This document shows positions 23,288 to 25,783 of a stretch of 63,499 nucleotides of DNA, in pieces. Positions within the stretch are counted from its first letter, which is position 1, and the number at the start of each line of letters is the position of its first letter. Source of the DNA: Candidatus Aenigmatarchaeota archaeon (GTDB taxonomy: Archaea; Aenigmatarchaeota; Aenigmatarchaeia; CG10238-14; SCSR01); assembly GCA_039090665.1 (NCBI GenBank), contig JAWCSL010000003.1:1-63499 (forward strand), read 5' to 3'. The position numbers and the translations under genes were made by a program. The notes below the pieces were generated by a model, which was not told the origin of the DNA, made no database searches, and was given only the letters and a program-made list of their open reading frames with translations.

Positions 23288-23914
23288 ATGAAATTCAAGT
23301 TTTTAGACTGGATTTACAGGATTTTTGGACTGAGAAGAAACATTAAGATAGGAATTTATGGTGAGACAGGAGTAGGGAAAACAACTTTAGCGAATAGAAT
23401 CTCTCTTGATTGGACTGGCGAAGAGATTGGTAAAGTTACGGGAATACCTCATGAAACTAGAGCAGTTCAAAAAAAGGAAAAAATTGAGATAAAGGTTAAT
23501 AAGAAGAAGATCTTGCTAAGCATCTTGGACATGCCTGGCTTGTCCACAAAAGTTGATTATAGAAGTTTCTTGAAGTATGGTCTTTCAAAAAAAGAAGCAA
23601 GGGAAAGGGCAAGGGAAGCAACTGAAGGGGTAATAGAAGCAATTAAATGGTTAAGTAATGTGGATGCTGTTTTGGCAGTTATGGATGCGACTCGTGACCC
23701 GTTGACTCAAGTCAATATTACATTGCTTGGAAACCTTGAAGCCAGAAAAATTCCTGTGATAATAGTGGCAAACAAGATTGATAAGAAAGGAGCCAAACCT
23801 CACTTGATAAAGGAGGCTTTTCCAACTTATCCTGTTGTTGAAATCTCAGCCTTAAAAGGAAAGAACATGGATTCCCTTTACGAAGCTATAGCAAAATATG
23901 CAAGGGGAGGATGA
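23288..23914 (+). CDS. oapA: Small Era-like GTPase (OapA-like)
   Basis: GETGVGKT, GIPHETR, DMPG, NKID, SALKG; followed by DUF2073-like and Zn-ribbon genes. Confidence 0.85.
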   Translation: MKFKFLDWIYRIFGLRRNIKIGIYGETGVGKTTLANRISLDWTGEEIGKVTGIPHETRAVQKKEKIEIKVNKKKILLSILDMPGLSTKVDYRSFLKYGLSKKEARERAREATEGVIEAIKWLSNVDAVLAVMDATRDPLTQVNITLLGNLEARKIPVIIVANKIDKKGAKPHLIKEAFPTYPVVEISALKGKNMDSLYEAIAKYARGG

Positions 23915-24327
23915 TGAAGTTAAAATTCGATTTTGTTTCTTCAGCTGTCTTGGAATCTAAGCCAAGAGATAAAAGAATAAACTTCATCTTGAACAAGGTC
24001 AAAGATGGAACAATTTTGGTTACAGATGGGGTTATGAGTCCAGAAGAAGAAATGGAGCTTATAAAAGAGACGATGAGAAGAGTTGATGAGGGCTTTCCAG
24101 GAATTGAAGTTGCTAGTTTGAAAAAACCTGTGAGTGGAATAGCAAAGTGGATTGAAAAATTTTCGGAACAAAAAGATAAGGTAAAAATTTTCTTTGCGAG
24201 CTTGACTGGAGAGAAAAAAGTTTCCAAAAGTTGGAAAACTGGCTTAACTTTAATAGGGCCTGCTAAATACATCAAACAAGTGAAGAAAAACCCCAATTCT
24301 TTTTCAATTTTAACAGAGGTTAAATGA
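23911..24327 (+). CDS. oapB: DUF2073-type protein (OapB-like)
   Basis: ILVTDGVMSPEEEMELIKETM...FPGIEV...GLTLIGPA. Confidence 0.82.
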   Translation: MMKLKFDFVSSAVLESKPRDKRINFILNKVKDGTILVTDGVMSPEEEMELIKETMRRVDEGFPGIEVASLKKPVSGIAKWIEKFSEQKDKVKIFFASLTGEKKVSKSWKTGLTLIGPAKYIKQVKKNPNSFSILTEVK

Positions 24328-24743
24328 TGCATAAGTGTGTGAGATGTGGAACAATTTATCAGGATGAGGATTCTTCAATATTGAGAGGATGCACAAGTTG
24401 TGGATCAATTTTTTTCCTTTATTTAAAAGATCAACAAGATTTAGCTCAAGTAAAAGAGATAGAGAAAGAGCTTGAAGCTAGAGACACAACACTTGAAAAA
24501 GAAATAGTCAAAAAGATTGAAGAAAAAAAGGAAGAGCAGAGATTTGTTGTTGAAAAAGACAAGAAAAAAGCTAAGAAGGAAAGAAAGATTAAGTTTGGAA
24601 TTGAGACTGTGAGGATACCAAGAGAAGGAGTTTATGAAATAAATCTTGACGCTTTGATGCAGAAGAAACCTTTGATAATTTTGGAAAAGGGGAAAGTTTA
24701 CTTCATTCACTTACCTTCTGTTTTTGAAAGCAAGAAAGAATAA
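24324..24743 (+). CDS. oapC: Zn-ribbon protein (OapC-like)
   Basis: MHKCVRCG...GCTSCGSIFF...ETVRIPREGVYEINL. Confidence 0.85.
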   Translation: MMHKCVRCGTIYQDEDSSILRGCTSCGSIFFLYLKDQQDLAQVKEIEKELEARDTTLEKEIVKKIEEKKEEQRFVVEKDKKKAKKERKIKFGIETVRIPREGVYEINLDALMQKKPLIILEKGKVYFIHLPSVFESKKE

Positions 24744-25376
24744 TTAGCAAACTAATAATTATGTTCAAGATATTGCTTTGGAGTGTAGCTAGTGTAACAT
24801 TTTTTTGGTTTGATATATTATGGTGCACATAGGGAAGATTCACATGAATCCCATGTTTCCTCATTTCAAACTTCTTGATAAACACGCACAACCTCTTCAC
24901 AATCTCTTAAAATGCTAGGATCAATAAAATCTTGATATGCTTTTGGCTTCAAAATGTTGAATTTTATCATCCATGTTCCTTGCTCAATAGGGCACTTCAC
25001 TTTAAACGGTTCAGAAGATGAAAATTGTTTTTAATCTTTTATTTTTCCAAAAAACTGTAAAAGAATTACTTGTTCATACTTTAAAAAGACGGGAAAATAT
25101 CGACGAAATATTAGCTTGAGCTACAATTTTGATCACATAAATTATTCTTTTTGTACCTTGTGGTTCTTCAAACAATCTAAAAAAGTAGAAGAGAAAAAGA
25201 TTTAAGCAAGTAATACCAATAAAAATATAGAAGAAGAATGCAGTCCCTACCTTTGTGGTTGCACAGAATGCTTGTAGCAAGGCTTTTTATTAGTTGCTAC
25301 ACCACAAAGGGTCAATTTGGGATGATTCCTTCTTTTTGATTCCAAAGGATGACCAGAAAATTAATTTCATGTTCTT

Positions 25377-25555
25377 GAATTGGCATGGGTCAATGAGAAA
25401 GGGCGAGACTAACCCCTAAGAGGTATTCTGATAGATCGACACCGGTTTAAGGTCTCCGTCCCCTCAACATTGAGAATGAACTGGAGAATTGAAAAATCGA
25501 CACCGGTATGTAAATCTAATTCTTCCGTTCCTCGAATTTCTCATTGACTCAATTC
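25377..25555 (+). ncRNA. Candidate structured RNA upstream of lysW with twin AUCG-ACAC-CGGU hairpins
   Basis: 14-bp closing stem 25387-25400/25537-25550; ATCGACACCGGT at 25435 and 25496; G-U pairs favour the + strand. Confidence 0.6.
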
Positions 25556-25588
25556 GTGGTAAAATTTAAATAGGGGAGGTTGAGAGAA

Positions 25589-25783
25589 ATGAAAAGCAAT
25601 TATGTTGGAAAATGTGAAGAATGTCTAGCAACAGTAGAATATATGGAAGGGGATCCAATTGTTGGTGAAGTAATAACATGCCCGGAGTGTGGAAGTGATC
25701 TGGAAATTATAACTATAGAGAGAAGCTCTTATACTCTTAACTTTAGAAAAGTCAAGCTGCAGGGAGAAGATTGGGGTGAATAG
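25589..25783 (+). CDS. lysW: LysW-type amino-group carrier protein
   Basis: CEEC...VGEVITCPECGSDLEI...C-terminal EDWGE; GGAGGT SD. Confidence 0.9.
   Translation: MKSNYVGKCEECLATVEYMEGDPIVGEVITCPECGSDLEIITIERSSYTLNFRKVKLQGEDWGE

Follow-up and report, generated by a model that had tools for sequence, protein, structure and literature searches.

To our knowledge, DPANN archaea are unable to make amino acids, and how they acquire them from their hosts is largely unknown. A small gene in one such genome raises the question of what a carrier protein of lysine and arginine synthesis could be doing where the enzymes that act on it are not found. The gene lies in the window, by which we mean the whole analysed stretch of 63,499 nucleotides, corresponding to contig C9 of a MAG of a tiny symbiotic archaeon from hot springs, a member of the Aenigmatarchaeota (DPANN; 620,606 bp in 15 contigs, estimated to be 90.6% complete). 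The solid result of the analysis is that this DPANN genome holds an orphan carrier that is under selection and derives from a host lineage. Its horizontal acquisition is what is new, and we found no description of such a carrier in the full-text literature on LysW and DPANN.

A LysW-type carrier and the search for its enzymes

The open reading frame extends on the forward strand from an ATG at 25589 to a TAG at 25781-25783 and encodes 64 residues (Table 1). This ATG is the likelier start because an upstream TTG (25580) overlaps the Shine-Dalgarno-like box GGGGAGGT, which ends 8 nt before the ATG. Together with the TATA-like box that precedes it, GGGGAGGT may serve as promoter and ribosome-binding site, going by the sequence, and an A/T box and GGAGGTGA are the equivalents upstream of lysW at two related loci, L093 and L013.

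Table 1. Features of lysW and its upstream region, in window coordinates
Feature	Position	Strand	Basis
LysW-type amino-group carrier gene	25589..25783	+	ORF, PF21344, fold, tree, dN/dS
First zinc knuckle, C9-E-E-C12	25613..25624	+	C9 and C12 invariant in the 44-sequence LysW alignment A2
Core VGEVITCPECGSDLEI, residues 25-40, including the second zinc knuckle C31-P-E-C34-G	25661..25708	+	codon comparison
Tail G-E-D-W-G-E, with the terminal Glu64 at the acceptor position	25763..25780	+	invariant in alignment A1
TATA-like TTTAAATA (25565-25572), then Shine-Dalgarno-like GGGGAGGT (25573-25580)	25565..25580	+	read from the sequence

Several lines of evidence place the product in the LysW family. 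With the Pfam model Zn_ribbon_LysW (PF21344) it scores 37.4 bits (E 2e-9), the cut-off being 27, and phmmer against the PDB sequences matches it to solved LysW proteins (3wwl, 5k2m, 3vpb). An AlphaFold2 model built from a 44-sequence alignment has a mean pLDDT of 86.4, and a Foldseek search of the PDB with this model returns LysW chains at all of ranks 1-6 (probability 0.99-1.00). The zinc-ribbon fold is that of the LysW proteins of Thermus thermophilus (PDB IDs: 3WWL, 3WWN, 5EIO), Sulfurisphaera tokodaii (3VPB) and Thermococcus kodakarensis (5K2M), with target-normalised TM-scores of 0.69-0.81, though these characterised proteins are only 28-36% identical to the window LysW in sequence. The zinc-binding cysteines follow the pattern C9-x2-C12 and C31-P-x-C34-G, and the C-terminus reads G59-E-D-W-G-E64. 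In the 44-sequence alignment A2 the residues C9, C12, C31, C34, W62 and G63 are invariant and E60, D61 and E64 nearly so. The family is defined by its zinc-binding cysteines and by the motif EDWGE, with the substrate attached to the Glu at the C-terminal end (PMC10433800). Three or four Cys ligands, an acidic pI and EDWGE with its Glu acceptor are accordingly common to the window LysW and its characterised counterparts in Thermus, Sulfurisphaera and Thermococcus (PMC10433800). Among the family criteria tested, only the curated NCBIfam cut-offs are missed, by models that nevertheless align end to end (NF041070, 45.4 bits against 75; TIGR01206, 25.7 against 53.2). By sequence, fold, motif and phylogeny the gene thus encodes a genuine LysW/ArgW-type amino-group carrier, and a sequence-only reading of this DNA, which had called it a clear LysW from its two CxxC pairs and EDWGE tail, was correct in this respect, far beyond what chance would give.

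The characterised LysW proteins have their partners LysX or ArgX, LysZ, LysY, LysJ and LysK in their own genome, whereas here none is present: lysX, lysZ, lysY, lysJ and lysK were not found in the 90.6%-complete genome. We word the absence as not found in the 90.6%-complete genome or in the genus, because the genome is not closed. The RimK model (PF08443) and TIGR00768 match only a 1055-residue ORF on contig C11 and, weakly, a 479-residue ORF on C8. The latter is PurD by Pfam; the former is probably CarB, as read from its size and twin ATP-grasp halves and not from the Pfam scan. ATP-grasp_4 has no match in the genome and ATP-grasp_3 matches only the C11 ORF. Similarly, AA_kinase (PF00696), Aminotran_3 (PF00202) and Peptidase_M20 (PF01546) have no match in the genome at E <= 1, and Semialdhyde_dh (PF01118) has a single sub-threshold match of 18 bits. 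A tblastn search of the genome with ArgG, LysX, LysY, LysZ, LysJ and LysK of the closest donor-type cluster (see below) gave nothing below E 0.01. LysX and ArgX recognise EDWGE and the C-terminal Glu of LysW through a GSWGR motif (PMC10433800). This motif is at residue 133 of the donor LysX, and G[STA]WG[RK] is absent from all six frames of the genome. A hidden LysX-type ligase was sought with RimK, TIGR00768, ATP-grasp_3 and _4, the donor LysX and the GSWGR scan, and only the putative CarB and PurD came up.

No RimK-family match at E <= 1e-10 was obtained in the seven other genomes of the genus, and the window lysW is the sole ORF of its genome to end in an EDWGE-like tail. The observation that lysW has no lysX, lysZ, lysY, lysJ or lysK neighbours consequently extends from the flanks to the whole assembled genome; the complete set of these genes elsewhere in the genome that the sequence-only reading had named as decisive against it was not found, and nor was the ligase in the seven related genomes. 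If the LysW pathway is taken to require LysX, LysZ, LysY, LysJ and LysK encoded alongside the carrier, the window LysW does not belong to one.

In Streptomyces a LysW homologue is used outside primary lysine and arginine synthesis, in secondary metabolism of the DADH/vazabitide type, and such carriers cluster with a LysX-type ligase and with LysZ and LysY homologues. The present genome differs in having no cluster of ligase, LysZ and LysY. RimK-family ligases above the TIGR00768 cut-off do occur elsewhere in the family and order, in other genera (L179-L184; genomes G015, G018, G022, G027, G036 and G041), several of them as tandem pairs of about 300 residues. We considered these pairs as LysW partners and rejected them, since no LysW-like ORF adjoins them. 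The Aenigmatarchaeota also hold a second, unrelated LysW-like lineage, found in another genus of the family (genome G030, L009:1498-1791, minus strand), with an N-terminal extension of about 30 residues and a GEDWGE tail; its gene, likewise without LysX, has an MFS transporter gene and a methionine aminopeptidase gene next to it. A relative of this protein (P0034) has lost the tail and ends in ..AIEKRE.

Horizontal origin, selection and loss

Few close relatives of the window LysW turned up in word-based and profile searches, and close homologues carry the source label Candidatus Aenigmatarchaeota. Scanning genome and metagenome contigs sorted the relatives into two groups. The low-GC group (31-38% GC) consists of the window, L013 (from G002, an Aenigmatarchaeota MAG), L093 and L009 (G030), and no Lys/Arg genes lie near any of these LysW loci. 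The second group (42-51% GC) consists of L014-L029 and L094-L101, from contigs labelled Brockarchaeota, Thermoproteota, Crenarchaeota or Nitrososphaerota. Its LysW proteins are the nearest non-DPANN relatives, with 58-67% identity to the window LysW and a core, VGEV(I/V)TCPECGSDLEI, and GEDWGE tail that are essentially those found here; the window core VGEVITCPECGSDLEI differs from the donor lineage by one I/V change. At every locus of this donor group argG lies upstream of lysW and lysX downstream, followed by lysY, lysZ, lysJ and lysK wherever the contig is long enough, so that the order is argG-lysW-lysX-lysY-lysZ-lysJ-lysK. The donor gene sits in an argG-lysX cluster in DNA of 42-51% GC, whereas the window lysW stands alone in a genome of 33.8% GC.

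Maximum-likelihood analysis of 76 LysW sequences unites the six DPANN-type proteins in one clade (support 100/99), which is nested in a larger clade of 23 rows that also holds the Brockarchaeota/Thermoproteota LysW (100/99). The internal nodes that nest the DPANN clade within the donor diversity have moderate bootstrap values of 87-91% on 64 columns, too few to fix the exact sister. The DPANN stem is 0.46 long, compared to 0-0.08 for the donor tips. Across the phylum, full-length LysW with the tail occurs in 3 of the 301 genomes sampled (0 at the curated cut-off). DPANN-type (L093) and donor-type copies (L097, L099) occur side by side in a single metagenome, Ga0078972. The GC content of lysW (37.4%, with GC3 at 26%) fits the recipient genome (33.8%) and not the donors (48-54%), and the transfer is therefore old. 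Aenigmatarchaeota of hot springs have been reported, in general terms and with no mention of LysW, to receive genes horizontally from TACK archaea (PMC8407114). An ancestor of the genus captured lysW horizontally from a hot-spring archaeon of the Brockarchaeota/Thermoproteota. A virus as the vector finds no support, as IMG/VR gives a single distant (40%) relative only. An assembly chimera was also rejected, because the same flanks are shared by three independent assemblies and the GC content matches that of the genome.

Purifying selection acts on the copies. The three that are available as DNA give pairwise dN/dS values (Nei-Gojobori) of 0.13, 0.29 and 0.22, with codon-bootstrap 95% intervals of 0.06-0.32, 0.11-0.75 and 0.09-0.51 that all lie below 1, though these values are rough because dS (0.7-1.9) is near saturation; neighbouring genes give 0.01-0.16. 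The frame is intact in the three DNA copies and in three further proteins. The core VGEVITCPECGSDLEI is identical at the protein level in the three Aenigmatarchaeota copies despite differences in 8 of its 16 codons, all synonymous, and the same holds for the GEDWGE tail, where 3 of the 6 codons differ. The four cysteines are unchanged in all six DPANN-type members, and GEDWGE is kept in five, the other (P0007) having GPDWGE. Variation is found in the N-terminus and the linker, where the DPANN clade conserves features of its own that are absent in the donors, namely (E)LKY-x-GEC at the N-terminus and, in a linker that is longer, Y-x-(L/M)-(N/K)-F-(R/K)-K. The net charge of the DPANN-type proteins is -6 to -9, compared to -10 to -11 in the donors, with new basic residues in the linker; for the window LysW it is -7 (pI 4.39), which is acidic but less so than the donor LysW at -11. 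Relative to the latter, the window protein has evolved much faster, and its linker is longer and more basic.

The gene order around lysW is shared by the window, L093 and L013: a P-type ATPase, two small genes, oapA, oapB, oapC, a non-coding element and lysW, with a convergent 119-residue gene and then further genes in common on its 3' side. Proteins of the neighbouring genes are 75-93% identical among these loci, compared to only 62-69% for LysW. Among seven further genus members examined, five lack lysW; three of these (G004, G006, G007) have the same locus without it, and two (G001, G005) are rearranged after oapC. In G004, which by its Oap proteins (92% identity) is the closest to this genome, a stub of lysW (L173, about 2283-2340) retains the TATA-like and Shine-Dalgarno-like region, about ten codons (..ELKYVGE) and the stop, and runs straight into the final bases of lysW, which amounts to an internal deletion of about 165 bp. 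The junction lies at a GGAGAAT repeat, which the intact gene has at codons 9-11 and in the tail, and the deletion possibly took place between the two repeats. G007 tentatively keeps a shorter stub. A tree of OapA, OapB and OapC, meant as a species tree, is star-like, and gains and losses beyond G004, the sole demonstrated loss, can therefore not be ordered. The simplest history is one acquisition followed by repeated loss, because the LysW proteins are monophyletic and sit at one site. In this genus, lysW is a stand-alone accessory gene that is intact in some species and deleted in others.

Possible roles of the carrier

Since all LysW hallmarks are kept under purifying selection, some carrier-type or LysW-type role is plausible. 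Use in trans is the most likely, because the symbiont has no partner enzymes and yet the zinc knuckle and the EDWGE tail are preserved; we put at about 35% the probability that the carrier works with the LysX-family Lys/Arg enzymes of a host that has the LysW pathway. Host LysX-family enzymes would load and process the symbiont LysW, and lysine or ornithine would thereby be diverted to the symbiont; alternatively, the symbiont LysW might bind and titrate the Lys/Arg enzymes of the host. The specific form of "carrier piracy", in which the symbiont encodes the carrier only and siphons lysine or ornithine from a Brockarchaeota-type host by way of the host's enzymes, is rather doubtful. Use in trans agrees with the fact that selection keeps exactly those parts, zinc knuckle and EDWGE tail, that LysX-family enzymes read, and with the derivation of lysW from a LysW-pathway lineage that also co-occurs with it in one sample (Ga0078972). 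The patchy retention of the gene would fit species with different hosts. However, no case of a protein passing between this group and a host has been documented, and LysW has no signal peptide. Release of lysine or ornithine needs a LysK-type deacylase, and the symbiont is without LysK. Further points against use in trans are the absence of lysW from five of the seven related genomes, including its deletion in the closest one, and its much faster evolution than donor LysW (stem 0.46 against tips of 0-0.08). The lower acidity and basic linker residues could weaken electrostatic docking, and the nesting within donor diversity has the moderate bootstrap (87-91%, 64 columns) given above.

The captured protein may instead have taken on a new function within the symbiont, as the carrier for an unrecognised ligase or as an acidic zinc-ribbon binder of a basic partner. 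We regard this as possible, if on the unlikely side. It would account for purifying selection in a genome without LysW enzymes and for the conserved DPANN-specific N-terminus and linker with their less negative charge, and the second LysW-like lineage in G030 is an orphan too. On the other hand, the genome has no spare ATP-grasp ligase, no neighbour tracks lysW (oapABC, the non-coding element of about 330 nt and the 119-residue gene are present either way), and the tightest constraint falls on the parts that LysX-family enzymes recognise. Absence of lysW from most of the genus, the deletion of about 165 bp in G004, and the low identity of the copies relative to their neighbours (62-69% against 75-95%) would all be expected of a functionless relic of a larger transferred fragment that is slowly being lost, its apparent constraint being a small-sample effect. 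We consider such a relic unlikely: the frame is intact in three DNA copies and three more proteins despite a dS of 0.7-1.9, the bootstrap intervals of dN/dS exclude 1, the four cysteines (6/6 members) and GEDWGE (5/6) persist among many synonymous differences, and a GC3 of 26% speaks for long residence in the genome and not for recent arrival. It is very improbable that the pathway genes simply lie in the unassembled 9% or so of the genome. A completeness of 90.6% in 15 contigs leaves room for them, but the searches of this genome detected none of the five enzyme families, no lysX/RimK-family gene was found in the seven other genomes of the genus, canonical LysW is found in 0 of the 301 phylum genomes, and lysW stands alone at three syntenic loci.

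The suggestion of the sequence-only reading that the protein serves a non-canonical carrier role fares less clearly than its identification. Its premise is sound, in that the orphan status is real and the hallmarks are under purifying selection. Nothing points to a secondary-metabolism or in-genome carrier pathway, because the genome has no such ligase and no linked enzyme. The gene is a transferred LysW of the canonical pathway that is dispensable and deleted in the closest relative, and a non-canonical role is therefore something that we infer and do not observe.

A carrier that is selected without the enzymes that act on it offers a concrete biochemical handle on amino-acid acquisition, and the donor lineage provides this uncultured genus with a specific candidate for its host. 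If lysine or ornithine is indeed siphoned off through this protein, it would name the host lineage of this Aenigmatarchaeota genus. With a new partner in the symbiont, it would exemplify how a metabolic carrier is recruited for a different task, and as a relic it would document the erosion of transferred operons in reduced genomes.

The surrounding locus

The sequence-only reading described the flanks of lysW as hypothetical genes only, which does not hold for the upstream side. Directly upstream (23288-24743) lies the "origin-associated protein" cluster of oapA (a GTPase), oapB (PF09846) and oapC (PF09845), followed by the conserved non-coding element. The long intergenic region after oapABC could be near a replication origin, though no ORB-type repeats or cdc6 gene were identified there. 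Between 24744 and 25190 this genome has about 400 bp of extra intergenic DNA that is found in it alone when compared with L093, L013, G004, G006 and G007; it contains only short minus-strand ORFs of 44-68 residues without Pfam matches.

The non-coding element (about 330 nt, at 25195-25555) is highly conserved in six genomes of the genus, with or without lysW downstream, and has no match in Rfam. Two identities for it were rejected: a riboswitch or leader RNA for lysW, given its presence in genomes without the gene and the lack of an Rfam match, and the SRP RNA, which sits on contig C12. The element begins with a BRE/TATA-like AAAGATTTAAG, contains two inverted repeats (25250-25259/25301-25310 and 25386-25400/25537-25551) and carries twin TGAnAnATCGACACCGGT repeats at 25429 and 25490.
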